A stretch of 64,000 nucleotides of DNA from an uncultured Anaerolineaceae bacterium (GTDB taxonomy: Bacteria > Chloroflexota > Anaerolineae > Aggregatilineales > Phototrophicaceae). Below are positions 16,495 through 62,286 of the stretch, piece after piece. How positions within the stretch are numbered: position 1 is the first letter of the stretch; each line of letters opens with the position of its first letter. The notes beneath the pieces are model-generated. The model was not told where the DNA came from. It made no database searches and was given only the letters and a program-made list of their open reading frames with translations. The DNA is taken from assembly GCA_964556745.1 (NCBI GenBank), contig CAZKXW010000007.1, forward strand, positions 21,028-85,027, given 5' to 3'. Position numbers and translations under genes: made by a program.

Positions 16495-16511
16495 AACTGA
16501 AGGGGGCCAGC

Positions 16512-43873: not shown

Positions 43874-45229
43874 CTACTGCGCTTTGGCCACAGGTAGAAT
43901 CTGCTCGACGATTAATTCACCGACCCCATTCTGATACAGCCACAGGCCGTTGGTCTGACCCCGAAAGCTTGGTTCACCGCCGAGCTTGCCGGTCAGCTTG
44001 AAGCCGGAAGCCAGCCCGATGCCGTAGAGATTGGGCACAACCGCCCCGCTCTGATCTAGTACGCGGCAGCGATCATCCACCAGCGGCGGAGCGCCCTCGC
44101 CGGAAGCCAGCAGTTCGATGGGTGAACCGCTCTGATCCCAGATGGGCAGCGTGTTGGGGCGGTAGCCGAAAGCCGGGATGATGAGCGCGGCTTCGTCGAG
44201 AAGCGCCCCGATGTTGACGCTGTTGTTCTTCCCGGTACGATCCAATGGGATAAGGCGTACCCGTCGTTCCAGAGGGACGCCGCCGATCCCCCAGATGCGC
44301 TTGATGAGGTCGCGGCTGTCGAAGCGCAGCCCGGCCAACCGATAGAGGCGGTTGGTCACGGGGCAAAAATCCTCATCGGTGAAATCAGTATAACCTTCGG
44401 CCAGCGCTGCTTCCCGCGAGGGATAAAACAGGCGGAACGGCTCGCGGTGGAGGATGGTGATGTCACCCTCGCCGAAGTTTACCGCCACTTTGTTGAGCAG
44501 CACCCAGGCCGACGAGGTGGTGCTGTGCGATGCGCCAATGATGACTACCTTATGGTTGTCGCTAGCCTTGAGGCGGCGCTCGATTTCCGGGATGCCTTCG
44601 GTGCTGAGAACCAGGTTGGTCAGCAGCGCTTTATGGGCATATTTGCCGGATAGACTGAGTCCCGGAATGATCTCCGAGCCGAGGGTGCGCTCGCGCGATT
44701 GGCTCCCGCCCATCGCCATCACCACGTGTTCGGAAACGATGTCGAAGCTTTCGCTCCTGTCGCCATCGCGGGAAACGAAGCTCGTCCGGTAGCGACCATC
44801 AGGCATCTGCCGGATTTCCCGCGCCTCGGCACAGAGGATGAACTGGCTGATCGGGTGGGCGTCCACGACCTGGCGCAGCGCTATCCCCAGCTCGCCCATG
44901 AACTCTCCCACCAGACGCAGCGGAACCTGCCCGCCCAGATAAGGTTCCAGGGCGCGCTTGGCCGGGCTGTCGATGACCGCTCGCAGCGGGCCGTTTTCCT
45001 GACCTTGCAGGCATTCCAGGAAGGTATTGCACAGCGTATCCGAATTGATGCTGTACTGCCCGATCACACCGCGACCCATCTGGTCGGTACGATCCACGAT
45101 GGCGACGCCGGTGTCGAGCAGCGCATCGAGGCGTCCCTGCTGAAGGGCGCAGACCAGCGGCCCCGTCCCGGCAGGCCCGGCCCCGATGATGAGCGTCTTG
45201 AAAGTGTTGTCGCCCTTCTTGAAGTGCAT
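43874..45229 (-). CDS. FAD/NAD(P)-binding oxidoreductase of unknown substrate
   Basis: IIGAGPAG, VVMAMGG, VVIIGASHS and AFGYRPN. Confidence 0.8.
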   Translation of the reverse strand: MHFKKGDNTFKTLIIGAGPAGTGPLVCALQQGRLDALLDTGVAIVDRTDQMGRGVIGQYSINSDTLCNTFLECLQGQENGPLRAVIDSPAKRALEPYLGGQVPLRLVGEFMGELGIALRQVVDAHPISQFILCAEAREIRQMPDGRYRTSFVSRDGDRSESFDIVSEHVVMAMGGSQSRERTLGSEIIPGLSLSGKYAHKALLTNLVLSTEGIPEIERRLKASDNHKVVIIGASHSTTSSAWVLLNKVAVNFGEGDITILHREPFRLFYPSREAALAEGYTDFTDEDFCPVTNRLYRLAGLRFDSRDLIKRIWGIGGVPLERRVRLIPLDRTGKNNSVNIGALLDEAALIIPAFGYRPNTLPIWDQSGSPIELLASGEGAPPLVDDRCRVLDQSGAVVPNLYGIGLASGFKLTGKLGGEPSFRGQTNGLWLYQNGVGELIVEQILPVAKAQ

Positions 45230-45249
45230 GTTTCCCCCTGCACAATCCC

Positions 45250-46443
45250 TCAAACCATGAAAAACGGATCGAAGCGGTACTGCCCCTGCAAGACCGAGTC
45301 GTACAGGCGCAGTCCCTGAATGGCAAAAGCTGATACCCAGACGTTGGCGTGGGGCATCAGTTCACCGCTGCTCAGGCGTCCGAAGTAGAATGCCCCGTTC
45401 ACCCGCCGGTCATCGGATTCGGCTTGATTGCGAAGTATGACTGTCACCAGCTTATCGAGTTTGGCGCGGGTTTCTTCGGTCAGGGCAATGCGCCCCTCGC
45501 CGATGTGGATCGAGGCCAGACGGAGCGTCTGCCCCAGCACATCGACGCGCTCGTTATAGAGCGGTTGGCCGTCGTGGAAGTGGCGCGGCACATAGCCTTC
45601 GGGCGACTGCCAGCGCAGCAGCCATTCGGTGGCGCGGACGGAAGCGCTCAGGTAGTCCTCGCGGCCCAGGTATTTGCCGACTGTCCACAGCCCCTCGGCT
45701 GAATAAGCGTGCGGATGGGAATTTGTCCCGCCTTCCGTGGGGAAGGAGATGAAGCGGCCGTCCGGCTGCTGGAAGGTCAGCGCGATGTCGCAGGCTTTCA
45801 CCGCCGCCTGAAGGTATTTGTCGTGCCGGGTCGCGTCGTACAGGTTCGCCAGACCGATGGCGACTTTGGTGTGGTAGCTGCCAGAACACAGCGACCATTC
45901 CTTGTCGGACTCGATCATTGTCCGCTGATCCACATCGTAGACCGCGTAGAAGGTGCCATCCGGCTTCTGCATATCCCGGATGAGCCAATCAGCCGTTGTG
46001 ACAGCTGCGGCCAGGATCAGGGGGCGCTGCGTCGCCCGGTAGAGATTAACCAAGCCGCTGAGGATGACGCCTGTGTCGAAGGTATAGAGTTGGCTGTGCT
46101 TGAATTCGTAGCGCGACGGAACCAGCGGGAACAGGCAGCGAAAACCGCCATCCGGTTGATAAGCGGTGCGGACGAGCCAATCCCCGGCCCCGGTGGCGCT
46201 GTCCAGAAAGCGTGAGTCACCTGTCTCCTGGTAGAGATAGCACATCAGCGTCGTCAGATACCCGGTGATCTCCGAGTAGACATAGGGCATGGTCTGGGTA
46301 TCCTGCTCGTACCAGCAGGCGAAGCCCTGGCTGTGCTGCGGATTGTCGCTGACCACCTGGACGCCCGAATTCAGCAGCCATTCAGCCGCCTGGAACGCCC
46401 GCTTGGAAAGGGCAGTTGATTCGGTGGAAACATGAGATGCCAT
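45250..46443 (-). CDS. (alpha/alpha)6-barrel protein (glycosidase/epimerase/prenyltransferase-like fold)
   Basis: YSEITGY, FDTGVIL, and repeated WL...Q.PDG.F motifs. Confidence 0.7.
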   Translation of the reverse strand: MASHVSTESTALSKRAFQAAEWLLNSGVQVVSDNPQHSQGFACWYEQDTQTMPYVYSEITGYLTTLMCYLYQETGDSRFLDSATGAGDWLVRTAYQPDGGFRCLFPLVPSRYEFKHSQLYTFDTGVILSGLVNLYRATQRPLILAAAVTTADWLIRDMQKPDGTFYAVYDVDQRTMIESDKEWSLCSGSYHTKVAIGLANLYDATRHDKYLQAAVKACDIALTFQQPDGRFISFPTEGGTNSHPHAYSAEGLWTVGKYLGREDYLSASVRATEWLLRWQSPEGYVPRHFHDGQPLYNERVDVLGQTLRLASIHIGEGRIALTEETRAKLDKLVTVILRNQAESDDRRVNGAFYFGRLSSGELMPHANVWVSAFAIQGLRLYDSVLQGQYRFDPFFMV

Positions 46444-46459
46444 TTGGGAACCTTCTTTG

Positions 46460-47674
46460 TTAACGAACTCTGGCCGTCCGCCGATGGCGGATCGCATCTT
46501 CGATGCAGACATCGAGCCGCTGGCCGATGACATTCCAATCGTATTTGTCTTCGATGAGTTTGCGCCCAGCGCGACGCATATCCTCGCGCAGCACTGGGTC
46601 GCGGAACAGCCGCAGCACAGCGTCGGCCAGTTCTCGCGGCGTATCGCCCGTGAGGATTTCGCGGCCTTCCTGGGCATCGACCCCTTTGGCAGCCCAGCGC
46701 GTCGCCACGATAGGCGTGCCCAGCGCCAGCGACTCAAACAGCTTGATGCGCGTGCCGCCGCCGACTCGCTCCGGGATCAGGCCGACCCATCCCGATTGCA
46801 CAAATGGCCGCACATCACTGAGGTGCCCGACGTGAACGGCGTTGGGATATTTCGGCAGTTCCTCGACTCGCGTCCCGTCCAGCCGTCCAGCCATCGACAA
46901 TTTCGCCTCTGGGCATTCGTTCAGGATCAGCGGATAAACCTCACCCAGAAAAAACTGCATGGCGTCGAAGTTGACGTAGTAGGTCAGCGCCCCGGTGTAG
47001 ACCATCGAGTTCGGCTGCGGCGCGGCGAAGCTGCCGGTCAGCCGTTCCAGGTCGGCGCCATTGGGAATAACATCGATACGATCGTATCCGGGGATGACGC
47101 GGTGCAGCGGCTCGACTTCAGGCTGGGAGACGACCGTCACCCGGTCGTACTCGCGCATCACCTCACGCATATAGTTGGCCCACTTCGACCACATCAACTG
47201 CTTGCGCATCCGCTTGAGTGGGCTGGTTTCCCTCCCAATCTGATCGTAGAAGACGCTGATTTCGACCTCTTCCAGAATCTTGGGCGTGTTCGGGAGTCCA
47301 CGGGTATACAGCGGCATATCGATCTGGCTGGCGATGACCGCATCGAAGGCGACCCGGCTTGCCATCTCCTGCACCACAGCATCCATCTGTGGGCTGAAGC
47401 AGTCCACCAGCGACCGCGGCTTGGAACTCAAAAAACCGGCCAGTGCCTTCATCCCGCCTGGATTGAAGTTCTGGTACGTCACGACATGGACTTCCCGGCA
47501 GTGTTCCTGCATCGCCGCGATCCGCGCTGCGTCTACCGGTTCATCCGCCGCTGTGAAGGATGCTAGATACACCTCGTGATGCTTGCCGAGGTACTTCAGG
47601 AGGTTGTAAATACGAATCTTCGAGCCGTTATTGGCTGGATATGGATACCAGCGCGAAAGAAACAGCAGACGCAT
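46460..47674 (-). CDS. glycosyltransferase family 4
   Basis: YPYPANNGSKIR, IPNGAD and GGGTRIKLFESLALGTPIV. Confidence 0.9.
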   Translation of the reverse strand: MRLLFLSRWYPYPANNGSKIRIYNLLKYLGKHHEVYLASFTAADEPVDAARIAAMQEHCREVHVVTYQNFNPGGMKALAGFLSSKPRSLVDCFSPQMDAVVQEMASRVAFDAVIASQIDMPLYTRGLPNTPKILEEVEISVFYDQIGRETSPLKRMRKQLMWSKWANYMREVMREYDRVTVVSQPEVEPLHRVIPGYDRIDVIPNGADLERLTGSFAAPQPNSMVYTGALTYYVNFDAMQFFLGEVYPLILNECPEAKLSMAGRLDGTRVEELPKYPNAVHVGHLSDVRPFVQSGWVGLIPERVGGGTRIKLFESLALGTPIVATRWAAKGVDAQEGREILTGDTPRELADAVLRLFRDPVLREDMRRAGRKLIEDKYDWNVIGQRLDVCIEDAIRHRRTARVR

Positions 47675-47676
47675 CG

Positions 47677-48876
47677 TCAGTGTAAACCTTGTGATGAGTG
47701 GTTGGGCACAATCGGCGCGGGCAGGGTTTTCCCAGACTGCAAACGCCAGCCATGATCGGTCAGCAGGCCAGCATCATGCAGGATGGCACGGATGATTTGC
47801 AGGCTGCTGGTTCCATCGCCATATGGGTTGCGGACGCTGGACATGCGCTGGTAATGATCCGGTTCCTCGATGAGGCGGATGGTTTCGCGCACGATGCGGT
47901 CGGCATCGCACCCGACCAGTTTGGCCGCGCCCGCCTCGACGACTTCCTGACGTTCGGTGACTTCGCGCAGGATCAGGATCGGCTTGTGGAGGCTGGGAGC
48001 CTCTTCCTGGATGCCTCCCGAGTCGGTCATGACCAGATATGAACGGTCGATCAGTTTGACCATCGTCCGGTAGTTGACCGGATCGGTCAGGGTGATATTG
48101 GGAATACCACCGAGGATCTCATAGGCCGGGCCGCGCACATTCGGGTTGTAATGCACCGGGAACACGAAGTGGGTCGAATCCTGATAGCGGTCGGCCAGGG
48201 TACGTAAGGCCGAGCAGACGTTCAGGAAGGGTTCGCCAAAGTTCTCGCGCCGGTGGGACGTGACCAGGATCACACGTTTGCCATCCAGCACCGCCGAGAC
48301 CTCATGCAGTGGTTCGTTGTGGACGCGCTGCGCTGTCATCAGGAGGGCGTCGATGACCGTGTTGCCCGTGACCAGGATGTGATCCGGGTTGACTCCCTCC
48401 CGGAGCAGATTCATGCGAGTCTGCTCGGTAGGCGTGAAGTAGAGATCGCTCATCAGATCGGTAATGCGGCGGTTGACTTCCTCGGGGAAGGGCTGGCGGC
48501 GGTCATGCGTCCGCAGCCCCGCTTCGATGTGCCCCAGCTTGACATTGTGGTAGAAGGCCACCAACCCGGCAGCCATGGCCGAAGTCGTATCGCCCTGCAC
48601 CAGCACCCAGTCCGGTTTGGCTTCGGTCATCACCTGATCCAGGCCGGTGATGAGGGTCGCCGTCAGCCCGGAAAGGGTTTGGTTGGGCTTCATCACGTTC
48701 AAATCATAATCGGGCTTGATATCGAATATTTCAAGAACCTGATCGAGCATTTCACGGTGCTGGCCGGTCACGCAAACCACCGGTTGCAGCCATTCTCGGT
48801 ACTCTTCAATCGCCTTGACGACCGGGGACATCTTGATCGCTTCAGGCCGCGTCCCAATCACCACCATCACTTTCAT
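47677..48876 (-). CDS. wecB: UDP-N-acetylglucosamine 2-epimerase (non-hydrolysing)
   Basis: GTRPEAIK, TGQHREML, QGDT, HIEAGLR, HRREN and TDSGGIQEEA. Confidence 0.96.
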   Translation of the reverse strand: MKVMVVIGTRPEAIKMSPVVKAIEEYREWLQPVVCVTGQHREMLDQVLEIFDIKPDYDLNVMKPNQTLSGLTATLITGLDQVMTEAKPDWVLVQGDTTSAMAAGLVAFYHNVKLGHIEAGLRTHDRRQPFPEEVNRRITDLMSDLYFTPTEQTRMNLLREGVNPDHILVTGNTVIDALLMTAQRVHNEPLHEVSAVLDGKRVILVTSHRRENFGEPFLNVCSALRTLADRYQDSTHFVFPVHYNPNVRGPAYEILGGIPNITLTDPVNYRTMVKLIDRSYLVMTDSGGIQEEAPSLHKPILILREVTERQEVVEAGAAKLVGCDADRIVRETIRLIEEPDHYQRMSSVRNPYGDGTSSLQIIRAILHDAGLLTDHGWRLQSGKTLPAPIVPNHSSQGLH

Positions 48877-49060
48877 CACTTGGATTGATCTCCACCACCT
48901 ATTTTCGTTATGTTCAATTGTTAATGACTGCGCCTTGCAATTGCCTTTCGCTTGGTTTGATGTCACGTAAATAATCCAAACAGTCCATTTCATACTACGC
49001 TCATGCAGAGATCCGGCGCGTTATAATCAGCCGGGATTGAATCCGAAAGCAGAGGTATTC

Positions 49061-49874: not shown

Positions 49875-50564
49875 CTAGATATGGCGGATGACCGACAGCA
49901 CCTTGCCCTGAATCTGGCACACCCGCGGATCGACATAGATCGGTTCCATGTGGGGGTGGGCGGGCTGGAGGCGGATGCGTCCGGCTTCTTGATAGAAATA
50001 CTTCAGGGTGGTTTCGCTACGGTCGGTCAGCCAGATGGCGACCATCTCACCATTCCGGGCAGTGTTCTGCTTGCGGAGGATGACGACATCGCCTTCGCGG
50101 ATCATCGCGTCCACCATCGAGTCGCCTTTGACGCGCAGGGCATAGGCGTTGTTCGGGTCAGAACCGCGCAGCATATCCTCGGTGACTTCCATCAGGCTGT
50201 CTTCGTCGTAGGCATAATCTTCGGGTACGGGGACGGGCTTGCTGGCGAAGATGTTGCCGATCAGCGGGATACGTGGAGCTTCCAGAGCCGCCTGCACCGC
50301 GATTTTGCCATCGCTGCGCGGCTCGGTTCCGGGGACGACCTGCGTCAATTGCAGCCCGCGCGAAACATGCTGCGACCGTTTGAGGTAGCCGGCCTGCACG
50401 AGCTTGTTCAGGTTGTAATTAACGACCGAGGTGGATTTGATGCCTGTGTTTTCTCCGATCTGCCGGATAGTGGGTGGATACCCGTGATTTTCCAGATAAT
50501 CCTGGATATAGCGCAACATATTGCGCTGCCGTTCGGAGAGTTTATTAAAATCCTTCATGGTCAT
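49875..50564 (-). CDS. lexA: SOS repressor LexA
   Basis: Winged HTH GYPPTIRQIG...STSVV; catalytic GDSM and TLK; LQPA. Confidence 0.95.
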   Translation of the reverse strand: MTMKDFNKLSERQRNMLRYIQDYLENHGYPPTIRQIGENTGIKSTSVVNYNLNKLVQAGYLKRSQHVSRGLQLTQVVPGTEPRSDGKIAVQAALEAPRIPLIGNIFASKPVPVPEDYAYDEDSLMEVTEDMLRGSDPNNAYALRVKGDSMVDAMIREGDVVILRKQNTARNGEMVAIWLTDRSETTLKYFYQEAGRIRLQPAHPHMEPIYVDPRVCQIQGKVLSVIRHI

Positions 50565-50585
50565 ATCCTGTTCTTTATCCTGTCG

Positions 50586-50644
50586 CGAATGATTGTTCTA
50601 TTGAGTATAGGCGAACTCCTGTTCGGTTGTCAAATATTTGTTCG
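50586..50644. promoter_or_regulatory. three LexA (SOS) boxes upstream of lexA
   Basis: Perfect CGAAC-tcct-GTTCG at 50612-50625; CGAAT-gatt-GTTCT at 50586-50599; CAAAT-attt-GTTCG at 50631-50644. Confidence 0.85.
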
Positions 50645-50771: not shown

Positions 50772-53700
50772 TTATGAGCCGGGGGTGGGTGTGACGGGGA
50801 GGCCGCCCATCGCCTGGACACGGCGCAGCATCTCGTCGGTGAGAGTCCCGGTAAGGCTCTGGTAAATTTGGTAGTCGGAGAGGGCTTTCTCGAATTCGCC
50901 GAGGCCGTAGTAGAGAGCACCGCGACGGTCGTAGCTGTCGGGACTTTCCGGTTGGATGCGGATAGCCTCGCTGTAGTCGGCTAAGGCAAGATCAAAGGCT
51001 CCCATGGCTTCGTGGGAGCGGCCCCGATTGTAATAAGCATCGGCGAAATCCGGCCGGTTGGCGATGGCTGTCGTGAAATCTTCGATAGCCTGCGGGTAGC
51101 CCTGAGCGCGGAACCACAGCCGCCCCCGCTGATAAAATGCTTCGGCATGGGTCGGATCGATGTCGATGACGCGGTTGTAGCTCTTCATGGCCGATTCCTG
51201 ATCGCCGAGGGCGGAATAGGCGCGTCCCTGATTGTAGAGGGTATCGACGTTATCGGGGTCGGCAGCCAGCACCACAGCGAAGTCGTCCAGCGCCAGCTGC
51301 GGATCGCCGAGGGCGAGGTAGTTGCGTCCACGCTGGTAGTAGGCGTCCAGACGGGTTGGGTCAAGGATGATGGCTTCGGTGAGGTCACGGTTGGAGCTGA
51401 CCAGATCGCCGAGTTCCTGACGGGCGCGGGCGCGGAGGAAATAGGCATCCGCATCCTGAGGGGCGAGGTGGATGGCCTGGCTGAAGTCATCGACGGCAGC
51501 CAGGAGGTTGCCCATATCCTGGTAAATGCGACCGCGCAGCATGAACGAATCGGCATCTTCTGGCTGAATGCGGATGGCGGTTTCCAGGTCAGCCAGCGCC
51601 AGTTCAAAGTCCTGGGTGAGGCGGTAAACGCGGGCACGTTCATAATAGAGACCGGCATCGTTAGGGGCGATTTCGATGGCACTGGCGAGATCGGCCAGTG
51701 CCTCAGGATACCGCTCCAACTGAGCATAGACGCGGGAGCGCTGGTAGAAGACATCCGAGTCAGGCTGGCCGAGGGCGATGGCCTGGGTGAAATCGGCCAG
51801 CGCCGCTTCCAGATCGCCGAGGCCGACCAGGGAACGTCCCCGGTTGTAAAAGGCATTGGCGCGGGCAGGATTGATACGGATCACTTCGCTGAAATCGGCG
51901 ATGGCTTCCTCGAACTGCCCATTAAGGCGGTAGAGGCGTCCACGCTGGTAGATAGCGTCTTCGTAGTTGGGCAGCAAGCGGATGGCGGTGTCAAAGTCTT
52001 CGAGAGCGCCGACGGTATCGGCCAGAGTCACTTTCAGGCGCGCTCGTTCATAGTAAAGTTCGGGGTTGTCCGGCAGGAGATCGATGATGGTATTGAGGTC
52101 GGTCAGCGCCTTCTCGCCTTCGCCCACAGAAGCCCAGGCATTGGCGCGGTAGCGGTAAGCGTCGGTGTATTCGGGGGCCTGGTCGATGACGGCTGTGAAA
52201 TCGGCGATGGCGCCCTCGAAGTCGCCGCTGCTCAGGCGGACCTGTCCCAGCAGCAGCCGGGCATCCATATCCTCAGGCCGACCTTCAACGACCCGCTCGA
52301 AATCGGAGATGGCGGCCGGGAAATTGGCGAGGCGGAAGTAGGCGACGCCGCGATAGAAGAAGCTGTCTTCATCTTCAGGATCGATGCGGATGGCCTCGGT
52401 GTAATCAGTGATGGCTTCCTGGTAGCGTTCCGCCTCAACAAGAGCGCGGCCACGGCGGATGTAGCCCTCGACTCCGCCGGGGTTCAGGCGGATGACTTGG
52501 GTAAAGTCGGCAATGGCGCGGGGCAGATCACCGAGGGATTGCCAGGCACGGCCACGGGCGGTATAGGCGTCTTCGTAGGTGGCGTCGAGGTCAATCGCCT
52601 TCGAGAAGTCATCGATGGCGGCCTGAGTCTGGTTATTGAGCATCTGGGCGCGACCGCGCAGAAAGTAGGCTTCGGGATTATCCGGGTCCAGGTTGATCGC
52701 CAGGGTGTAATCGGAGATGGCTTCGGCGTATTGGTTGGAGTCGGCGTAAATGCGACCACGCACGAGAATGGCATCGATATTCTGAGGATCAAGGTCGAGA
52801 ACAACAGCAAGATCAGCCAATGCGCTGGGAAGATTACCCGTCTGGCGGAGGACGAGGGCACGGCGGTAGTAGGGATCGAAATCCTGTGGATCGATCTCAA
52901 TGGCACGGTTGAAGTCGGCCAGGGCGTCATCAAAGCGCAACAACTGGCGGCGGGCTTCGCCGCGCTGGTAGTAGGCGGTGGCGTTGGCAGGCTGGGCGGT
53001 AATGACGACCGTGAAATCTTCTTCCGCGCCCATCCAGTCGCGGGCGGAGAGGCGCACCAAGCCGCGGTTGAAAACATAGTTGAGGCTGTCGGGATTCAGC
53101 CGTATGGCGGTCGAGAAAGACTCAACCGCGCCGGAGGTATCCAGCAGGATGTTGCGAACGTAGCCGAGATAGGCATAGACAACATCCAGGGACAAAACAG
53201 AAGCGCGGTTCTCGTCGTTGTTGACCGTTCGCAGAGCCGTAGCAAAGAGTGTTTGCGCGCGTTCGTACTGGCGATTGAAAACAGCCAAGATGCCAGTCAT
53301 GACCTGAACAGTATAGAGTCCATCGCTGGTCGAAGTGACGATCATTTCGAAGTTCTCGATATCAAGGTCGAGCTTCAGCTTGGGGGCGATGAGGGGCTGC
53401 GGTTTCTTTTCGGCAGGCGGCAGGATGACGTTGATCCGCAGGATAAAGTCATCTACCCGCGGAAAAACGACCATGGAAGCATTGGTTTGTTCTAGCAAGG
53501 CGCGGCCAACGGAACGATCTGAGATGGGACGCGCCAGCGTGCAGACCGTCCCTGCGCCCGCGCTGGAGAGCGCAGCTTGAATCTGGCGCACCTGATTCAT
53601 GACGGCGCTGCCGGAATCGCCAGCTTCGGAGGCGAGCGGCGCGATGATGAGCAGGATTTCGCCCTCAGAAGCGGGCGGACAGGCGGTCTGGATCAAGGGC

Positions 53701-53867
53701 TGCGGCGTCGGGACGGGTGTGCGCTCGGCAGCCTGCCCGATGCGATGGGAACTGGATGCCGCCTGAACATGAAACCCCGGGGCCATGCTGAATAGCACCA
53801 GGACGATCAGGGCAGCCAGCAGAAGACCGGGGCGAAGATCCCAAGAGCCGTAATTCGTGTTTCTCAT
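50772..53867 (-). CDS. secreted TPR-repeat protein (roughly 22-23 34-aa repeats)
   Basis: Hydrophobic signal ending VQA-A; repeats of AYY.RG......G....AI.DF..AI.L.P over about 780 aa. Confidence 0.9.
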   Translation of the reverse strand: MRNTNYGSWDLRPGLLLAALIVLVLFSMAPGFHVQAASSSHRIGQAAERTPVPTPQPLIQTACPPASEGEILLIIAPLASEAGDSGSAVMNQVRQIQAALSSAGAGTVCTLARPISDRSVGRALLEQTNASMVVFPRVDDFILRINVILPPAEKKPQPLIAPKLKLDLDIENFEMIVTSTSDGLYTVQVMTGILAVFNRQYERAQTLFATALRTVNNDENRASVLSLDVVYAYLGYVRNILLDTSGAVESFSTAIRLNPDSLNYVFNRGLVRLSARDWMGAEEDFTVVITAQPANATAYYQRGEARRQLLRFDDALADFNRAIEIDPQDFDPYYRRALVLRQTGNLPSALADLAVVLDLDPQNIDAILVRGRIYADSNQYAEAISDYTLAINLDPDNPEAYFLRGRAQMLNNQTQAAIDDFSKAIDLDATYEDAYTARGRAWQSLGDLPRAIADFTQVIRLNPGGVEGYIRRGRALVEAERYQEAITDYTEAIRIDPEDEDSFFYRGVAYFRLANFPAAISDFERVVEGRPEDMDARLLLGQVRLSSGDFEGAIADFTAVIDQAPEYTDAYRYRANAWASVGEGEKALTDLNTIIDLLPDNPELYYERARLKVTLADTVGALEDFDTAIRLLPNYEDAIYQRGRLYRLNGQFEEAIADFSEVIRINPARANAFYNRGRSLVGLGDLEAALADFTQAIALGQPDSDVFYQRSRVYAQLERYPEALADLASAIEIAPNDAGLYYERARVYRLTQDFELALADLETAIRIQPEDADSFMLRGRIYQDMGNLLAAVDDFSQAIHLAPQDADAYFLRARARQELGDLVSSNRDLTEAIILDPTRLDAYYQRGRNYLALGDPQLALDDFAVVLAADPDNVDTLYNQGRAYSALGDQESAMKSYNRVIDIDPTHAEAFYQRGRLWFRAQGYPQAIEDFTTAIANRPDFADAYYNRGRSHEAMGAFDLALADYSEAIRIQPESPDSYDRRGALYYGLGEFEKALSDYQIYQSLTGTLTDEMLRRVQAMGGLPVTPTPGS

Positions 53868-53999: not shown

Positions 54000-55097
54000 T
54001 CAGATGTTATGGTCCTGCATGGTGCTGCGGCCGTTAAGCGTGACGTTGGCGGTAGCCGCTCCCATGATGCGGTTAGCGAGAAAGGCATTGCGTTCCTGCT
54101 CGTGACCACGGACGCCAGCCGTCTCATCGATGCCGAACTGGGCGCGGATGTCGCCACGACTGATGACGGTATTATTGGCGACCATGCAGTCGGTTGCGCC
54201 GGAGGTATCGGTATCGTCGAGGATGATTTCGCTGTAGGTATTGTGCTGTTTCTGGCCGTTTTCGCGGACGAGATTGCCGATGACGGTCGTCCGGGCGCCG
54301 CCACGGATGCGAATACCGTTTTGCTGGTTGCGGAGAACAGTATTGTTGAAAAAGGCGTTGTCGTTCACCTCGATGCTGTAGAGGCCATCGCCGCCGTTTT
54401 CGCGCGACAGACTGCCAATCACCTCATTGGAGTGGGAGCCGTTCTGGATGGTGAAGCCGTTGCCCTTGTTTTCGTAGGCGAGGTTCTGGCTGAGGATGCA
54501 GAAGCGCGAATTGGTAACCAGGTTGAAGCCATGACGGTCGTTGTTGAAGGCGATGCAGCCTTTGACGATACTGGTTTGCACACCGTCCAGCGTGAAACCA
54601 TCGAGGCCGTTGTGGTGAGATACACAGTCCACCAGGGTCAGGCGGGTAACGACCTCGTGCGGGTCGAAGCCGTAATCATGGAAGTGATGGGCTTCGACCC
54701 GCAGGCAGGAGATGTCGTAGTCCGATGTGGGCTGGTCGGGGATGACGCCGCAGTAGAAGCCAACCTGTTCGACTTCAGCCTGATTATCACGGTTGCCGTC
54801 GAGGGTCAGGTCACGGACACAGACATTGCGCGTACCACGGCCATAGGGTGTCCGCACGAGGCCGACGATGCGCGTGTTGGTGTTGTCGGCGATCTTGAGG
54901 ACAGTTGTGCCCATGCCGGCCCCGGCCAAGGTGATGCCGTCTGTGAGCAGAATGGACTGTGAGAGAATATAGGTTCCGGACGGGATGAAAACCGTGCCAC
55001 CATCGAAGCTGGCGGCATTGACGGCCAGCTGAACGGCATCGGTATCATCGGTACGGCCATCACCGCGGGCGCCGTAATCCTGAACGTTGAAGATCAT
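54000..55097 (-). CDS. AlgE-type mannuronan C5-epimerase A-module (beta-helix), no signal peptide
   Basis: FNVQDYGARGDG.TDD, GAGMGTT, VRDLTLDGNRDN, YGFDPHE, NGLDGFTLD and NDRHGFN. Confidence 0.85.
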   Translation of the reverse strand: MIFNVQDYGARGDGRTDDTDAVQLAVNAASFDGGTVFIPSGTYILSQSILLTDGITLAGAGMGTTVLKIADNTNTRIVGLVRTPYGRGTRNVCVRDLTLDGNRDNQAEVEQVGFYCGVIPDQPTSDYDISCLRVEAHHFHDYGFDPHEVVTRLTLVDCVSHHNGLDGFTLDGVQTSIVKGCIAFNNDRHGFNLVTNSRFCILSQNLAYENKGNGFTIQNGSHSNEVIGSLSRENGGDGLYSIEVNDNAFFNNTVLRNQQNGIRIRGGARTTVIGNLVRENGQKQHNTYSEIILDDTDTSGATDCMVANNTVISRGDIRAQFGIDETAGVRGHEQERNAFLANRIMGAATANVTLNGRSTMQDHNI

Positions 55098-55124: not shown

Positions 55125-56348
55125 TCAGGCATTCATGGCGCGAATGGCGGTGACATCATTCATGGCGAAGTCGCTGGTGGCTGCACCGCTGACTCGGTTG
55201 GCGACGTAAGCGTTGCCGACCTGCAGAACGTTGCCGTCACCGGGGGTTTCACGAATGCCGTAGCGGGCGCGGACTTCCTTGCTGCTGGTGATGTGGTTGG
55301 ACATGATGGCACAATCCACGGTAGGGATTGCCCCGTCGTCATCGATGAAGATTTCGCTGAAGCGATTGTGTTCGCTCTGAGAGTTGTCGCGTATGCGGTT
55401 GCCAACGACAGTAGTGCGGGCACAACCGCGCAGCCGAATGCCATTCTCCAGATTTTCAGCAATCAGGTTGTTGGAGATGACGTTGTCGTTGACACCAATG
55501 CAGTACATCCCATCGCCCGTGTTCTTGTAGGCCATGCAGCTGGTGATATGGATGTCGAAGGAGCCGTTCTGGATGGTAAATCCGTTGGCGTTATTCTCGT
55601 AGGCGATGTTCTGGTCGAGGATGACATTGCGCGAACCGGTGATGACGTTGAAGCCGTGACGGATGTTGTTGAAGGCAATGCAGCCACGGACGACGCCATT
55701 GATAATACCGTCCACGGCGAAGCCATCGCGGACGTTGTTATGGCTGACGCACTCGATCAGGAAGAGGCGGTCGGTCAATTCGTGCGGGTCGAAGCCGTAC
55801 CCCTGGAAGCTGTGCGTCTCGACGCGCCAGCAGACGATATCCTCATCGGGGGGGCGGACATCGGCTTTGACGCCGGCGAAGAAACCAAATTGCAGGCCAG
55901 AGGACTGGTTGGCGCGGTTGCCGTCCAAGGTGATGTCACTGATGCGAACGTTGGTGAGGGGCTGGTCGCCGCGGGCGATCTGGGTGCGGATGACGCCGAT
56001 GATATCGATGCCGACTTCATCACGGACTTTGAGGGTGGTCGCGCCCATGCCATCGCCGAAGAGGGCAGTGTGGCTGAGCATCTCAATCGAGGCTGAGACC
56101 AGATAGACCCCGGCGGGGACATAAACTGAACCGCCACCGGCAGCGAAAGCCGCGTTGACGGCGGACTGGATGGCGAAGGTATCATCAGTGGCGCCATCGC
56201 CGACCGCGCCGAAGTCCCGCGCGTTGAGGGCCAGGCCGGTGGGGTTGGTTCCGGGCGGCGGCTGCATGGCGGGGCTGAGGCCGAAAGGAAGCGCAGCAGC
56301 CCCAGCCGCCATCGTCTTCAAGAAAGCGCGTCTGTCTATCGATTGCAT
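55125..56348 (-). CDS. AlgE-type mannuronan C5-epimerase A-module with a Tat signal
   Basis: DRRAFLK twin-arginine leader; NARDFGAVGDG.TDD, TLDGNRAN, GYGFDPHE, DGFAVD and RHGFNV. Confidence 0.85.
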   Translation of the reverse strand: MQSIDRRAFLKTMAAGAAALPFGLSPAMQPPPGTNPTGLALNARDFGAVGDGATDDTFAIQSAVNAAFAAGGGSVYVPAGVYLVSASIEMLSHTALFGDGMGATTLKVRDEVGIDIIGVIRTQIARGDQPLTNVRISDITLDGNRANQSSGLQFGFFAGVKADVRPPDEDIVCWRVETHSFQGYGFDPHELTDRLFLIECVSHNNVRDGFAVDGIINGVVRGCIAFNNIRHGFNVITGSRNVILDQNIAYENNANGFTIQNGSFDIHITSCMAYKNTGDGMYCIGVNDNVISNNLIAENLENGIRLRGCARTTVVGNRIRDNSQSEHNRFSEIFIDDDGAIPTVDCAIMSNHITSSKEVRARYGIRETPGDGNVLQVGNAYVANRVSGAATSDFAMNDVTAIRAMNA

Positions 56349-56372
56349 CGGCAAACTGATCCTCGAATTGAA

Positions 56373-59231
56373 TTACTGGGCTGAATCACCGGGGATGGCC
56401 GCATTGGCGACCAGGACATCGGTGATATTGGACGCATCCAGCGCGATCTGGTCGTAGCCCCAGAAGGGAACCAACGTATCATCCGCGCGGACGATGGCAC
56501 CCATCACCGAGGTATCGATGAGCAGGGTTGTCCGCTCCAGCGCCAGCGCCGCCAGATGCGCGCCAGGTTCGGTCACGCCGGTTGCCACAATCATATGACG
56601 ATCCGAGTTCCAGGGCGAGTCGCTCGTCCAGATGAACCCGGAGTCCAGGGTGGGCAGGATGGCATTAATGCCCACGCCGGTCAACAGGTTAGCCTGACGG
56701 CTGAGCAGGTCGCTGAGTGCCTGACGCTGCACCGAGCCGAGGACGATGATGTTGGCAGTCGCCAGCACATCCTCGTCCAGCGCGGAGGGGGTCATCACGC
56801 GCAGCGAGCTAGAAGGATGGCCGTTAGCCCCCAGGAAAGCGACCAGACGCACCAACTGGTTGAGTTCAGCTTCGGTGGGCGCATCCGGAATGATGATGGC
56901 CGTCGGCGTGGCCGTTTGCATCGACAGGAAGGGGAACGGATAGCTCGCCAGACTAAAGTCGTCAGGCTGGCGTTCGCCCCAGGATAGGGTGGTATAAGCA
57001 TCGATCTGCTGCCAGAGACGGATGACCGGAACGTCCGGGCTGGTCATGGCGCTGGCCGGGAAGGACAGGCTCAGGACGAGCGGCTTCTGAGGATTGGCCG
57101 CGACGATCTCGGCAGCAGGAGCCAGCGAGAGCGTGAGCGGCTGGGCGGCGGATGAGTCAATCTTCTGAACGCCGATGAGCGTGTCATTGAGCATGACGGT
57201 GATGGGTGTGCCGTTTTGCAGCAGGTTCAGGGCGGCGCTGTCGATGTGCAGGGTCAACTGAGCCGGATCGATGTTATCGGTGACGATCAGCGTGTACTGA
57301 CGCTGGAACTGCCCGGACTCATCGGGGTGGGTATCGATGGTGTGGTCAAGCTGCTCCAGGCGGATGCTGGCCGGGCTGCTAGTGCTGACGGTCTGGAAGA
57401 AGGCCGTGCCCAATTCCTGTTCCATCATGGCGCGGGCGCCTTCGGCATCCAGGATTTGACCACGCAGGCGGTAAAGCTGATTGGGATCGGCAGCGGCCAA
57501 GACGATCATATCGCTGACATCCCAGGGGGCACGGGCGATGCGGATGGGGTTTTTGTCCAGCTCGGCGAAGGGTTCGGTGTCCATGAGGCGTTCGCCTTGG
57601 CGAGGATAGTCGTACATGCTGGCGACAATGCTGGCGACGTAACCCTCGGCGGGCGGACGGCCCACGGCGATCAGGTTGGAGATTTCGACTTCGGCTTCGG
57701 TCAAGGTGGAGGTCTTGACGACACGGATGAAGTCGGCCTGGCGCATGATTTCTTCACCCATGCGGGCGATATCCGGCAGGGCCGCATTGAGCAGGTTCAG
57801 ATCGGTCGGATCGGCGATCGCGATGAAAGTGGTGCGCTGTTCGCCGAAGACGACAGGAAGCACTTCCAGCCCATCCTGGCCGGGACGGTAGAAATGGCCA
57901 ACTTCGGCCAGGCCGGGAATATCGGCCACCCAGACATCCTGCGAACGGAAGGCAATGATGCCGAGAACAAACATGACCGCGGCCGTCACGGTGCGATAGA
58001 CGTTGGTCAGCAGCATCTTGGAGAGGTTTCTGGCCTTCTGCCCGGCTCCGCGCGTCAGCCAGCCAGTTTCCCAGAGGGTGACAAGGGCATGGACTTTGAC
58101 GACGGACAGGAAAATGGAAAAGAACGAATAGGCAGGCACGACCCAGAAGCGTTTGGTTTCCAGGAGGTAGGGATAAATCTTGATGGCGCGGCTGATGATC
58201 CACCAGATGGCGAGGATGCCTGCAGAGAGGTAGTGCTGCGTCAGGATCAGGATAGTCATGTACCAGATCGCCAGAGCAAGCGTGAAGGTGCTCATCATCC
58301 GGTCGAGGGTATAGAACATCATGATCGGGTTGCGAACCATCCAGGGCTTGCGCTGGAAGATGGCCCGCAGGTCGGAAAACCATGAATTCCGTGCCCAGCG
58401 AAGGCTCTGCGAAACGTAAACACGCGGGCTGGATTCGGGCCGTGTGTAGACTTCGCTATCGACGATGACGGCAGTATGGTAGCCGGCGTCTTGCAGGAAG
58501 GTGGTGAGGCACTTGTCTTCACCACCGCCGGTCTTGCGGATGCCGAGCCACTGTTCGTTGACCAGATTGGCGCTGATTTCCTTGAGCGGCCCGGCGAGGT
58601 AAGCTGAGCAGCGACCGCTCAGGCAGGACATATAACCGCCGACGGCCTGCCCGGGGGCTTCGATGTGATAACGGAGTTTAAGGCGGATATCGAAGAGGTG
58701 GTGCATCAAGTTCGCCGGTTGGTAGACGCGCTGCTTGACGGTAACGCCACCGATGCCCGGTTTGCTGAAAGTCTCCAGGATTGACTGCTTAACGCCTTTA
58801 CCAAAGATGGTGTCACTGTCCATGCAGATGATGATGTCCATGCCCTCGACCATGGCGATGGCGGCTTTGAGACCTTTACGCTTGCCCTTTTCGTAGACGA
58901 TCTCCCAGCGGATATCGATCTCACCGGCGTGTTCCTGGGCAAAACGGTCGGTCAGGGCCATGTTGTCATGTTCGCCCTGGTCGAAGGTGATGCAAACCTG
59001 GTCGATGCGTTCACGCAGGAGCGAATCCAGCACCTTCTGGAAAGTCTCTGGCGGCTCACCTTTGACGGTCATAGCCGCGCCGACCCGTTTATAAGGCAGT
59101 TCGCCCGTGGCCTTGATATCGCGCCAGCGCGCGGACAGCAGCAGCTTAAAGAGCCATGCTCCGTGGCGAATCGCGCCGATCACCCCGAAGGGGATGAGGG
59201 CAATGAGCGCTGAAATCACATCCTGAGACAT
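56373..59231 (-). CDS. processive GT2 polysaccharide synthase fused to an extracellular BcsB-like domain
   Basis: TM; KGKR, DSD, CLSGRCSAY, GED and QSLRW; further TMs; W.TR; C-terminal YPFPF..TAIIIPD, NIIVLG and SPWN...ATG. Confidence 0.85.
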   Translation of the reverse strand: MSQDVISALIALIPFGVIGAIRHGAWLFKLLLSARWRDIKATGELPYKRVGAAMTVKGEPPETFQKVLDSLLRERIDQVCITFDQGEHDNMALTDRFAQEHAGEIDIRWEIVYEKGKRKGLKAAIAMVEGMDIIICMDSDTIFGKGVKQSILETFSKPGIGGVTVKQRVYQPANLMHHLFDIRLKLRYHIEAPGQAVGGYMSCLSGRCSAYLAGPLKEISANLVNEQWLGIRKTGGGEDKCLTTFLQDAGYHTAVIVDSEVYTRPESSPRVYVSQSLRWARNSWFSDLRAIFQRKPWMVRNPIMMFYTLDRMMSTFTLALAIWYMTILILTQHYLSAGILAIWWIISRAIKIYPYLLETKRFWVVPAYSFFSIFLSVVKVHALVTLWETGWLTRGAGQKARNLSKMLLTNVYRTVTAAVMFVLGIIAFRSQDVWVADIPGLAEVGHFYRPGQDGLEVLPVVFGEQRTTFIAIADPTDLNLLNAALPDIARMGEEIMRQADFIRVVKTSTLTEAEVEISNLIAVGRPPAEGYVASIVASMYDYPRQGERLMDTEPFAELDKNPIRIARAPWDVSDMIVLAAADPNQLYRLRGQILDAEGARAMMEQELGTAFFQTVSTSSPASIRLEQLDHTIDTHPDESGQFQRQYTLIVTDNIDPAQLTLHIDSAALNLLQNGTPITVMLNDTLIGVQKIDSSAAQPLTLSLAPAAEIVAANPQKPLVLSLSFPASAMTSPDVPVIRLWQQIDAYTTLSWGERQPDDFSLASYPFPFLSMQTATPTAIIIPDAPTEAELNQLVRLVAFLGANGHPSSSLRVMTPSALDEDVLATANIIVLGSVQRQALSDLLSRQANLLTGVGINAILPTLDSGFIWTSDSPWNSDRHMIVATGVTEPGAHLAALALERTTLLIDTSVMGAIVRADDTLVPFWGYDQIALDASNITDVLVANAAIPGDSAQ

Positions 59232-59389: not shown

Positions 59390-60619
59390 TTAGTCGCCGG
59401 CCAGCGCAGCGCTCTCTTCGGCATCGAAGCGGAAGGGCATGACTTTCGGCAGAGGCTTGGCATCTGTCTTTTCCAGGACGGGCACCGCTTCGGAATGCGC
59501 GTCGTAGCCAAGATGCCCATTCGACGCAGCGGAAGCTGCGGTTCCGTTCGGCGCAGCGATGATCGCGGCATCTTCGCCGATCCAGGGAGTGACCGGCTTG
59601 GGCGCCGTTTTCTTGAGAACTGCTTCCTGGTACTGGTCATAGGCAGCAAGCGCCTGACTGCGCAGCTTGGCGGCGTTCATGCGGCGGAAACCGCCTTTGA
59701 CGGGCTGGGGTACTGCGCCCTTCTCGGCCAGATCGATGAACATGTCGTTGACGGCACGGGTGGCGGCCAACTGCGGCATTTCGATGCCTTCCTGCTTGGC
59801 CAGGGCGAGGGTGGCAGCCACATCCTTGGGCAGGCATTTGCCGCCGTAGGGGAAACCGCTGGCTGTGCCGTACCAGCGATTCAACGCGCCTTCGCTCATG
59901 CGGATGGCAAGGTCGATGGCCTGCTGGCCGTCAATGCCCATCTGCTTGAGCATGAGGCCCATCTGGTTGAAGTAGGAGATGATGGTGGCGTTGTAGGTGT
60001 TGACGATGACCTTGCTGGCCTCGGCCACATCGACCGGGACGACCGACATCAGGCGGTCACGTTCGGGGCCGAGTTCGGCGCCGAGCATCTGCACAAGGGT
60101 CTGTCCAGTGCGCTCGTCGAGCGCGCCGATGACGACCTGCCAGATGTTGGATTCGTCTTCGTTGGCATCGGTCTCACGCAGGATTTCGGGCATGTGGGCA
60201 TAGCCGAAATGGACGCCAGCCTTCAACCCGGAGTGGCTTTCGAGGCGCGGGATGATCTCGCGTTCAGAGAGTTTGGGCAGCATGGTACTGCGCATGACGA
60301 CCATCGGGTAGTAGCCTTGATCAACGCGCTTTTTCAGCCAGGGGCCGATGACCTTCAAGCCTTCCCGCATGTAATCCAGGAAGATAGAGCCGTCGATTTC
60401 GGATTGAGGGGTCGAAATGGCGACGAAGAGCATGTCGGCGGTGCAGGCCATGAAATCATCCATGTGTTCGGCGGGAATGCCCTGAGCGCGGAGCTTGCTG
60501 ATGGTCTCCGGGTTCACATCATAGCCAGTGATGGTGTATCCCCGGTTGTGCCAGGTGTGCAGAATTCCCTGCCCAACCACGCCGCTGCCAACTACCGCAA
60601 GCTTGATCTCGTGTTTCAT
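59390..60619 (-). CDS. UDP-glucose/GDP-mannose 6-dehydrogenase family protein, short form lacking the usual C-terminal domain
   Basis: GSGVVG, STP, RST, PEILRE, AEASK...N and GFPYGGKCLPKD (Cys262); about 110-aa Ala/Pro/Lys-rich tail. Confidence 0.88.
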   Translation of the reverse strand: MKHEIKLAVVGSGVVGQGILHTWHNRGYTITGYDVNPETISKLRAQGIPAEHMDDFMACTADMLFVAISTPQSEIDGSIFLDYMREGLKVIGPWLKKRVDQGYYPMVVMRSTMLPKLSEREIIPRLESHSGLKAGVHFGYAHMPEILRETDANEDESNIWQVVIGALDERTGQTLVQMLGAELGPERDRLMSVVPVDVAEASKVIVNTYNATIISYFNQMGLMLKQMGIDGQQAIDLAIRMSEGALNRWYGTASGFPYGGKCLPKDVAATLALAKQEGIEMPQLAATRAVNDMFIDLAEKGAVPQPVKGGFRRMNAAKLRSQALAAYDQYQEAVLKKTAPKPVTPWIGEDAAIIAAPNGTAASAASNGHLGYDAHSEAVPVLEKTDAKPLPKVMPFRFDAEESAALAGD

Positions 60620-61185: not shown

Positions 61186-62286
61186 TCAGTTTACACAAGC
61201 CTCATCAGCGGCGGCGTTTTCCAGCGCTTCGCGGTTGACGCGGCCATCGCCGTTGTCTTCGATGCAGTTGCCGCGAATCAGGGCGATTTCGGCAGGCAGC
61301 GGCTCAAAGAGCGCGTTGATGCCGAAGTAAGCATTGTTCCGAATGATGTTGCCCATGACGACATTGCTGCGTCCGGTTTGGCCGGCGGCCGCGCTACCCG
61401 GCCCTAAGCGAATGCCGCTGCCCGCGTTGTGTTCGATGCGGTTGTTGACGATGATGTTGTCATGACCGTTGACGTTGATGCCGCCGCTTTGGGGGTCGCT
61501 GGTCTGGTACGCGCAGTAGTTGCCCTCGACCAGATTGAAGGAGGCGTTTTCCTTGATATCGACGCACTCGCTGCCGGTTCCATCGGGAAGGCCGAGGTTG
61601 AAGGTGTTGCCAGTGATCCAGTTGAAGCGGGTCTGGTCATCGGGCTGCTGGCTCTCGGTAGAGCCAATATAGATGGCCTCGCGGTTATCGCCGGTACTGC
61701 CGCCGCCCAGACGCCCACAGTATTCAAAGCGGCTGTCCTGAATGACATTGTGGGCGGCGTTCAGGCGGAGTCGGACGCATTCCTCACGGGCGTTGCGCAG
61801 GACGAGGTTGGAGAGGGTCAGGCGGGTGACATCGGCGGAGGCGACGTAAACCAGCTTCTTGCGGTAGTCGCCGGGCGTGTATTCGCCATCGATGGTGAAG
61901 CCGTTCAGGGTGAAGTTGCCGGTGAAAACCTCGACGATGTAGGTATCGCCGGCGCCGAACAGGACGGCGGCGGGTGAACCGGTGATGGTGATGGGAGCGG
62001 TGCTCGCCAGGCAGTCGGGGCGGTTCAGGTCGATGTCTTCTTGGTGGCGACCGTCGGCAAGCTGGATGGTAGTGCCGCAGGGAACCTGCTCCAGAGCCTG
62101 TTGCAGTGTTTGGAAAGGGGGGGCTTGGCCTGCGATTGAAGCGGGCACGTCCTGGCTGCCCAGGGCGGCGACAAAGGTCGGCAGGGGGTAGGCGGCCAGG
62201 CGGCGCGGCTGTGGGCTGATAAAGATCGCCAGCAGCAGGGCGAAGAAGCTGAGCGTAATCCAGGCGGGGGGAAGCAGGCGGTTCAT
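61186..62286 (-). CDS. exported right-handed beta-helix protein, polysaccharide lyase-like (PL31-like)
   Basis: N-terminal hydrophobic leader; EECVRLR, EAIYIGS and ECVDIKE; Asn-ladder repeats. Confidence 0.72.
   Translation of the reverse strand: MNRLLPPAWITLSFFALLLAIFISPQPRRLAAYPLPTFVAALGSQDVPASIAGQAPPFQTLQQALEQVPCGTTIQLADGRHQEDIDLNRPDCLASTAPITITGSPAAVLFGAGDTYIVEVFTGNFTLNGFTIDGEYTPGDYRKKLVYVASADVTRLTLSNLVLRNAREECVRLRLNAAHNVIQDSRFEYCGRLGGGSTGDNREAIYIGSTESQQPDDQTRFNWITGNTFNLGLPDGTGSECVDIKENASFNLVEGNYCAYQTSDPQSGGINVNGHDNIIVNNRIEHNAGSGIRLGPGSAAAGQTGRSNVVMGNIIRNNAYFGINALFEPLPAEIALIRGNCIEDNGDGRVNREALENAAADEACVN

Follow-up and report, generated by a model that had tools for sequence, protein, structure and literature searches.

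Reports of isolated bacterial alginate concern Pseudomonas and Azotobacter, and putative clusters have been noted elsewhere (PMC4444821, excerpt). According to PMC8461298, the known bacterial alginate polymerase requires Alg44, its receptor for cyclic dimeric guanosine monophosphate (c-di-GMP), as well as c-di-GMP itself, and the mechanism of activation awaited a structure as of 2021. In the cellulose synthase complex BcsAB, the C-terminal amphipathic helix and membrane anchor of BcsB are indispensable for catalysis (PMC8892547, excerpt). Excerpts of an operon survey describe atypical alginate operons without algKE or modification genes (PMC7112194). For brown algae, the mannuronan synthase is described as unidentified and the algal family 2 glycosyltransferases (GT2s) are said to be non-homologous to Alg8 (PMC11468063). 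The subject of the present analysis is a gene in a 64,000-nucleotide stretch of DNA (the window) from an uncultured Anaerolineaceae bacterium (contig CAZKXW010000007.1), in which a GT2 is fused to three BcsB-derived domains. Based on its sequence and genomic setting, the encoded protein likely synthesizes mannuronan/alginate with one chain and probably does so independently of c-di-GMP. Synthase-dependent exopolysaccharide systems are a known kind, and there are precedents both for natural fusions of BcsA with BcsB and for hybrid operons that combine cellulose with alginate-acetylation genes; the present combination is a further variant. No description of such a GT2-BcsB fusion or of a Chloroflexota alginate operon was found in searches of the open-access literature, judged mostly by listings and the beginnings of abstracts, and the portions of PMC11468063, PMC8892547 and PMC7112194 that were consulted contain no mention of "chloroflex". 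The fusion gene and its parts are as follows.

56373..59231, minus strand: GT2-BcsB(D2-D4) fusion protein, 952 aa (open reading frame, Pfam, PDB sequence matches, homologues, structure model, Foldseek)
57936..59231, minus strand: GT2 synthase part, residues 1-432, with an N-terminal transmembrane helix, DSD138, CLSGR203, GEDK237, QSLRW275, transmembrane/interface helices, WLTR391 and a last transmembrane helix (~408-432) that would lead outward (Pfam, PDB matches, motifs, alignments)
57411..57830, minus strand: flavodoxin-like domain, equivalent of BcsB D2, residues ~468-607 (secondary structure of the model; profile match starting at residue 187 of a canonical BcsB-like protein in locus L059)
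56973..57368, minus strand: all-beta jelly-roll, equivalent of BcsB D3 (carbohydrate-binding-like), residues ~622-753 (model, Foldseek, profile)
56463..56903, minus strand: flavodoxin-like domain, equivalent of BcsB D4, residues ~777-923, with no transmembrane anchor after it (Pfam, PDB sequence matches, hydropathy, model)

All nine motifs named in a first-pass annotation of the window were located within this one reading frame, at residues 138 (DSD), 203 (CLSG), 237 (GED), 275 (QSLRW) and 391 (WLTR) of the GT2 part and at 519 (NLIAVG), 568 (APWD), 827 (NIIVLG) and 872 (SPWN) of the BcsB-like part. Pfam matches were obtained to GT2 (PF13641, residues 67-282, E 7e-18) and BcsB (PF03170, residues 760-852, E 3e-11, 42.9 bits with a cut-off of 21), and PDB sequence matches to hyaluronan synthases (residues 115-401) and BcsB (residues 756-839). 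Hydropathy peaks (> 1.5, 19-residue window) lay at residues ~1-28, 312-346, 362-388 and 407-436, with no hydrophobic segment past residue 436 by the same measure. The protein combines the D,D,D,QxxRW motifs and the several transmembrane helices of processive membrane GT2s, and D138, D140, D239, R278 and W279 were invariant in 15/15 aligned rows. As the first-pass annotation had stated, no PilZ motif is evident: Pfam gave no PilZ match at E ≤ 0.1, and the RxxxR strings (183, 544) and DxSxxG-like string (906) are not in a PilZ arrangement.

Full-length homologues made up 14 of the 24 proteins returned by database search (query coverage 95-100%, identity 40-92%), so the fusion is real and conserved, not an artefact of chance or assembly. 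Those with named sources are Anaerolineae, as are, by title, six genome loci. The fusion is rare, occurring in 4/61 genomes of the relatives search with its own genome counted; among 400 genomes of the phylum, five other GT2 matches were found, none in a long enough frame. All 15 BcsB fusions (the query and the 14 homologues) formed one branch nested among other GT2s of a wider clade (FastTree, 167 rows). Two hot-spring metagenome runs, both from a single study, also contain near-identical DNA (shares of 0.57 and 0.37).

The structure of residues 441-930 was predicted from a 51-row alignment (predicted local distance difference test 85.5, predicted template modelling score 0.84) and consists of an alpha/beta, then an all-beta, then an alpha/beta domain. 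In a Foldseek search with this model, ranks 1-22 were E. coli BcsB or chains B of BcsAB complexes (E 3.7e-18 to 2.7e-9), and the first match other than BcsB followed at E 5e-4. Template modelling scores of the BcsB matches, normalized by query, were 0.25-0.46, indicating that domain packing differs. A profile of the BcsB part aligned in one stretch to a canonical BcsB-like protein of 713 aa from L059, which is of the same class (Pfam BcsB E 1e-53); the match spans residues 187-653 of that protein. The BcsB resemblance that had been claimed for residues ~440-952 was thus borne out at the level of fold, but for D2-D3-D4 only: neither D1 nor the C-terminal helix and anchor is present, and fusion homologues terminate soon after D4. 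The earlier term "co-polymerase domain" is not supported, given the missing D1 and co-catalytic tail and given close relatives whose GT2 has no appendage; because D1 and the tail anchor are lacking, "scaffold" is the fitter label. The last GT2 helix is preceded by the WLTR loop and a run of basic residues, a topology that would place the BcsB part outside the membrane, in line with the extracellular position first proposed.

Sister GT2s with 42-49% identity (424-435 aa) have no appendage past the last helix. In other GT2 relatives a short immunoglobulin (Ig)/cadherin-like domain occupies this site, and in those more distant an AlgG-like beta-helix does; by these comparisons the GT2 appendage is exchangeable. 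Standalone BcsB-like genes were detected in 27/400 other genomes of the class, which suggests a local donor pool. None of the BcsB-like frames in those 27 genomes scored as a fusion-type GT2, and one separate L075 frame scored weakly. Given these genes, and given that the Bacillus subtilis control also scored above the BcsB cut-off, the statement that BcsB partners BcsA proved too narrow. Standalone BcsB-like genes, sometimes in tandem, lie within polysaccharide clusters (L023:6527-11514; L059-L087). Like BcsA-BcsB and BcsAB fusions, the present protein joins a GT2 and a BcsB fold in one chain, with a flavodoxin/jelly-roll/flavodoxin array that would lie outside the membrane. Unlike them, its GT2 is not BcsA and has no PilZ, and its BcsB part, without D1, C-terminal helix and anchor, is attached by its N-terminus.

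The strongest evidence on the product comes from the flanking alginate-pathway genes, which the first-pass annotation had left unused.

59390..60619, minus strand: short nucleotide-sugar dehydrogenase, 409 aa, predicted GDP-mannose 6-dehydrogenase (AlgD match, alignment, motif pattern of brown-algal GDP-mannose dehydrogenases, GMDs)
55125..56354, minus strand: AlgE-type mannuronan C5-epimerase A-module, 409 aa, without an R-module, bearing a Tat-like signal and preserved YGFDPHE and DGF motifs (PDB 2pyg, E 1.1e-52)
54000..55097, minus strand: second AlgE-type A-module, 365 aa, without an R-module or a visible signal peptide, both YGFDPHE and DGF preserved (PDB 2pyg, E 5.2e-60; 5lw3, E 9.1e-60)
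61186..62286, minus strand: beta-helix protein, 366 aa, N-terminal hydrophobic signal, candidate polymannuronate lyase (Pfam, Atlas, invariant columns, PsAly residue spacing)
50772..53867, minus strand: tetratricopeptide repeat (TPR) protein, 1031 aa, N-terminal signal-like segment, candidate AlgK-like scaffold, no beta-barrel (profile matches; cluster linkage)

The best PDB match of the dehydrogenase was AlgD (1mfz, E 2.3e-31), and the best UDP-glucose dehydrogenase match stood at E 1.4e-26. Its motifs are GSGVVG (11-16), P257 and GGKCLPKDV (259-267), and it lacks the C-terminal Rossmann domain along with part of the N-terminal fold, a truncation seen also in the four operon-linked orthologues that were aligned. 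Assayed Saccharina GMDs, as described in PMC4782291, have 315-320 aa, an incomplete Rossmann fold and motifs at 11-16 and 256-264 or at 14-19 and 259-267, and carry a Val (GxGxVG) and a Pro (two residues before GGxCLPKDV) where bacterial residues differ. This Val, this Pro and the truncated form are common to the dehydrogenase of the window and the assayed Saccharina enzymes.

The Tat signal of the first epimerase scored under the Pfam cut-off and over that of TIGR01409. YGFDPHE and DG[FI] were kept in all 8 correctly translated orthologue rows, and the catalytic motifs were identical in the alignments to 5lw3 and to AlgE4 (2pyg). The second epimerase may be cytoplasmic or co-exported with its Tat paralogue; the L030 locus has the Tat-bearing copy only. 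Both genes resemble Azotobacter AlgE1-7 and P. syringae PsmE in their A-module with YGFDPHE and DGF and differ from them in having no R-modules, one Tat-like signal and a place in the synthase operon. AlgE A-modules are always followed by R-modules, yet the A-module suffices for epimerization (PMC4444821, excerpt).

In the beta-helix protein, E203, Y206, E240, K245, K144 and R174 were kept in 5/5 orthologues, and D243 is E in one of the five. E203-x-x-Y206 and E240-x-x-D243-x-K245 are spaced like the residues that serve catalysis and metal binding in PsAly, a polymannuronate lyase (PMC6796002, excerpt). The short dehydrogenase with its motif pattern and the lyase-like residues, which are common to PsAly and SjAly, resemble the brown-algal pathway (short GMD, ManC5-E, PL41).

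Linkage was counted over loci with enough flank, with duplicate loci counted once. The dehydrogenase was directly upstream of the fusion in 7/7 distinct loci, and the first AlgE-type gene directly downstream in all six where the contig extends; the second epimerase was found in 4/5, the TPR gene in 4/5 and the beta-helix gene in 5/7. This dehydrogenase-synthase-epimerase core was kept at synthase identities as low as 43%. In another Chloroflexota genome (G339; L040:84-11586), a standalone member of the GT2 clade is flanked on one side by the same short dehydrogenase and on the other by a triple AlgG-like protein of 1404 aa, and the cluster continues with a mannose-1-phosphate guanylyltransferase (TIGR01479, E 1e-97), a TPR gene and another AlgG-like gene; the AlgG-like epimerases matched NF038177 at E 1e-62. 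The genome that carries the window (G000) has a ManC (GDP-mannose pyrophosphorylase) homologue on another contig (C16, E 5e-89) and two further nucleotide-sugar dehydrogenases. Searches of this genome by tblastn gave no match to AlgI-like, BcsZ, BcsC or alg44-position genes, and none of the tested acetylation genes and no porin were found in it. Like the Pseudomonas/Azotobacter Alg8-Alg44 (alg) operon, the locus joins a GT2 having basic residues in common with Alg8-like proteins (alpha-proteobacterial ones were tested) to an AlgD-type dehydrogenase, an epimerase, a candidate lyase and a TPR gene. Unlike that operon, it has no Alg44/PilZ partner, no AlgI-like or other tested acetylation gene and no porin that was found, its epimerases are of AlgE rather than AlgG type, and its synthase bears a BcsB-derived appendage.

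The first-pass annotation had called the GT2 "hyaluronan-synthase/Alg8-like", and its family placement was analyzed with FastTree (167 rows), a quick mixture tree (58 rows) and a careful tree (25 rows). The Alg8-like references were five GT2s from alpha-proteobacterial plasmid clusters, labelled by operon position and distinct from Pseudomonas Alg8; the three annotated ones sit in dehydrogenase-GT-X-AlgA-like-beta-helix operons. The labels HasA-like and Cps3S-like denote proteins that we take to be such from their motifs. In all three trees the Alg8-like rows fell inside a clade with the fusion and with epimerase fusions, and hyaluronan synthase (HAS)/NodC and Cps3S-like rows fell outside it. 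Clade support was 100 by the Shimodaira-Hasegawa-like approximate likelihood ratio test (SH-aLRT) in the 58-row tree; in the 25-row tree, ultrafast bootstrap and SH values were 85/92 for a 16-row clade and 99/98 for an 18-row clade. Eight polar residues (R187, R207, K240, N282, R289, D310, R348, K379), picked after one Alg8-like alignment had been viewed, are invariant or nearly so in the clade; all five Alg8-like proteins have 8/8, HasA-like 0, NodC 1 and Cps3S-like 2-3. Epimerase-like modules were fused to 25/113 database proteins in the GT2 clade versus 0/37 outside (kin, not independent cases), and the DPH motif was retained in 14/27 of the epimerase-GT2 fusions found. Trees, residues and operon thus favor the Alg8-like half of the earlier label over the hyaluronan-synthase half, with references that are Alg8-like by operon only.

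Compared with class I HAS, NodC and Cps3S-like proteins, the fusion is alike in being a compact single-subunit GT2 with DSD, C-x-x-G, GxD, QxxRW and WxTR and has its top raw similarity to them. They differ from it in having GP for GR and DDR for EDK/DDK and in lacking both epimerase genes and a BcsB appendage; in place of the class I HAS motifs C-x-x-G-P and G-D-D-R, the fusion has CLSGR and GEDK, and it lies outside the HasA-like/NodC group. It differs from Alg8 as well, with ~21% identity in one Alg8-like alignment and the Q of QxxRW kept. In three further proteins (P0116, P0156, P0168), an AlgE-type module (YGFDPHG) forms the N-terminal part and a GT2 of this family follows, the order opposite to that of the AlgG fusions. 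Alg-like operons were also seen on alpha-proteobacterial plasmids (L048:9995-20900, L051, L052), and the gene at the alg44 position of L048 (344 aa) had no NCBIfam match. A dehydrogenase and HasA-like GT2 cassette is present on an Enterococcus plasmid (L046:773-3190), with similar GT2 genes on Lactococcus plasmids.

The genome of the window is 94% complete. No PilZ or EAL domain was found in it, and none of its 15,711 open reading frames contains an intact GG[DE]EF motif. Its GGDEF matches were three weak ones, all REC-fused and with broken motifs (window 16353-17369, plus strand; C87:13541-14521; C67:26779-27600); these degenerate proteins are possible receptors or relics. PilZ was likewise absent from the 4/4 other fusion genomes searched and from the fusion loci. 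Six of the seven fusion genomes had only partial GGDEF matches of ≤ 40 bits (kin genomes, with motifs read in the window's genome only), and the control genome G339 had eight at 131-166 bits. The c-di-GMP independence that had been raised as a possibility can therefore be graded as probable, as judged from gene content.

Several observations weigh against an alginate synthase free of c-di-GMP control. The profile of the GT2 gave raw scores of 215 bits for Cps3S-like, 152 for HasA-like and 124-131 for NodC, with only 67-75 for Alg8-like proteins, and hhalign was likewise unfavorable to the latter (E 3e-25 versus 5e-13). The approximately unbiased (AU) test spoke against grouping the Alg8-like rows with HAS/NodC/PgaC, but the result was borderline (p 0.0475). 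The Alg8-like rows lie on a very long branch, are in the same clade as the fusion but not its sister group, and deviate at Q167, E226, Q275, R311, K351 and R394, and the eight signature residues were chosen with hindsight. A fungal protein (P0099; Podila, Mortierellomycota) also falls in the clade, groups with the Alg8-like proteins and has 8/8 signature residues; it is a candidate fungal polyuronide synthase and leaves room for polyuronides other than alginate. The dehydrogenase matches AlgD better than UDP-glucose dehydrogenase by a margin of only five orders of E-value, and the beta-helix protein is a lead on an alginate lyase through its residue spacing, with no PDB sequence match to a PsAly/SjAly-type (PL31/PL41) lyase at E ≤ 5. 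Regarding signalling, G833, one of the fusion genomes, encodes a GGDEF domain of full length (109 bits), and PilZ absence is weak evidence given that PilZ is also missing in cyclase-bearing G339.

A different polyuronide, most likely a beta-1,4-glucuronan made from UDP-glucuronate and epimerized (glucuronate to iduronate) or cleaved by the AlgE-like modules, would be compatible with basic channel residues, which suit any polyanion, with the two other nucleotide-sugar dehydrogenases, with UDP-glucose dehydrogenase as second-best PDB match of the dehydrogenase, and with the Mortierellomycota proteins that share 8/8 signature residues. Mortierellomycota have glucuronan-type wall polymers. We regard this product as unlikely, however, given that AlgD is the best match of a dehydrogenase with the brown-algal GMD pattern, ManC lies within the G339 cluster, the epimerases are AlgE homologues (E ≤ 1e-52) and the beta-helix spacing is that of polymannuronate lyases. 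A synthase of hyaluronan or of a cellubiuronan (type 3 capsule)-like polymer, using UDP-sugars and with the dehydrogenase as HasB/Cps3D equivalent, is very unlikely. Its nearest solved GT2s are hyaluronan synthases (E 9e-7; 1e-9), its top raw scores are to Cps3S-like and HasA-like proteins, some homologues are named "hyaluronan synthase" in databases, and a dehydrogenase beside a GT2 is also the has/cps3 layout; but there is no Alg8 entry among the PDB matches, so the PDB ranking cannot favor Alg8. These families moreover fall outside the clade with 0-3/8 signature residues, their dehydrogenases retain the C-terminal domain, and two mannuronan epimerases would be left unexplained. For a neutral glucan, as from a cellulose synthase of the BcsAB-fusion kind, the BcsB domain and the existence of natural fusions (PMC8461298, excerpt) can be cited, but E. 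coli BcsA scored only 19 bits on the clade profile, PilZ and, by tblastn, BcsZ and BcsC homologues are lacking, uronic-acid pathway genes flank the fusion and the conserved residues are basic; this reading is extremely improbable.

Alginate could also be the product of a synthase in which the BcsB part is essential to catalysis as a true co-polymerase, or in which an unlinked receptor relays control by c-di-GMP or a different signal. Conservation of the fusion in 15 proteins with identity down to 39% would fit the former, although the co-catalytic tail of BcsB is absent, the 424-435-aa sister GT2s are bare and others have Ig-like or epimerase domains at that site. Hidden regulation would fit the three REC-GGDEF proteins as receptors, the full GGDEF of G833 and the incompleteness of G000, but six of seven fusion genomes have no canonical cyclase match. 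Taken as one reading, these variants are quite unlikely.

For the c-di-GMP-independent alginate synthase favored here, the following mechanism is proposed. The ManC homologue and the AlgD/brown-algal-type dehydrogenase would supply GDP-mannuronate. The GT2, with D,D,D,QxxRW intact and basic residues as in Alg8-like proteins, would extend a polyanionic beta-1,4 chain and thread it through its own membrane channel. D2-D3-D4 would sit over the channel exit outside the membrane and serve as guide or wall-spanning spacer rather than as a catalytic co-factor, with the last GT2 helix taking over the anchoring job of BcsB. The Tat-exported AlgE module, perhaps together with the unsignalled one, would convert mannuronate to guluronate outside the cell, the beta-helix lyase would trim or free the chain, and the TPR protein would chaperone it. 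Because neither acetylation genes nor a porin were found, the product would be a non-acetylated alginate released across one membrane. The Anaerolineae envelope is monoderm. More tentatively, the locus may represent a single-membrane bacterium's self-sufficient, c-di-GMP-free alginate synthase, a cellulose-system scaffold grafted on a compact GT2, and may mark a broad mannuronan-synthase clade with AlgG/AlgE-type epimerase fusions, of which Alg8 would be a fast-evolving offshoot and in which the brown-algal synthase could be sought.

If correct, a one-chain, switch-free synthase would be far simpler for reconstitution, structure determination and production of non-acetylated, guluronate-containing alginate in Gram-positive hosts, and the outer domains of BcsB would prove to be a transferable module that can also serve a polyanion. 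Through its short dehydrogenase, this operon type is linked to the brown-algal pathway and offers a concrete sequence signature for seeking the synthase of that pathway. The cluster is also a candidate source of alginate-like matrix in Chloroflexota-rich biofilms, though a rare one.

Elsewhere in the window, a separate sugar cluster at 43874-48993 (minus strand), not beside the operon in the loci of relatives, contains a UDP-GlcNAc 2-epimerase, a GT4 (TIGR03087-like), a GH76-like protein and an FAD oxidoreductase-like gene. Between this cluster and the operon lies lexA (49875-50633, minus strand), with a sigma-70 consensus promoter (11/12) at 50633-50604.

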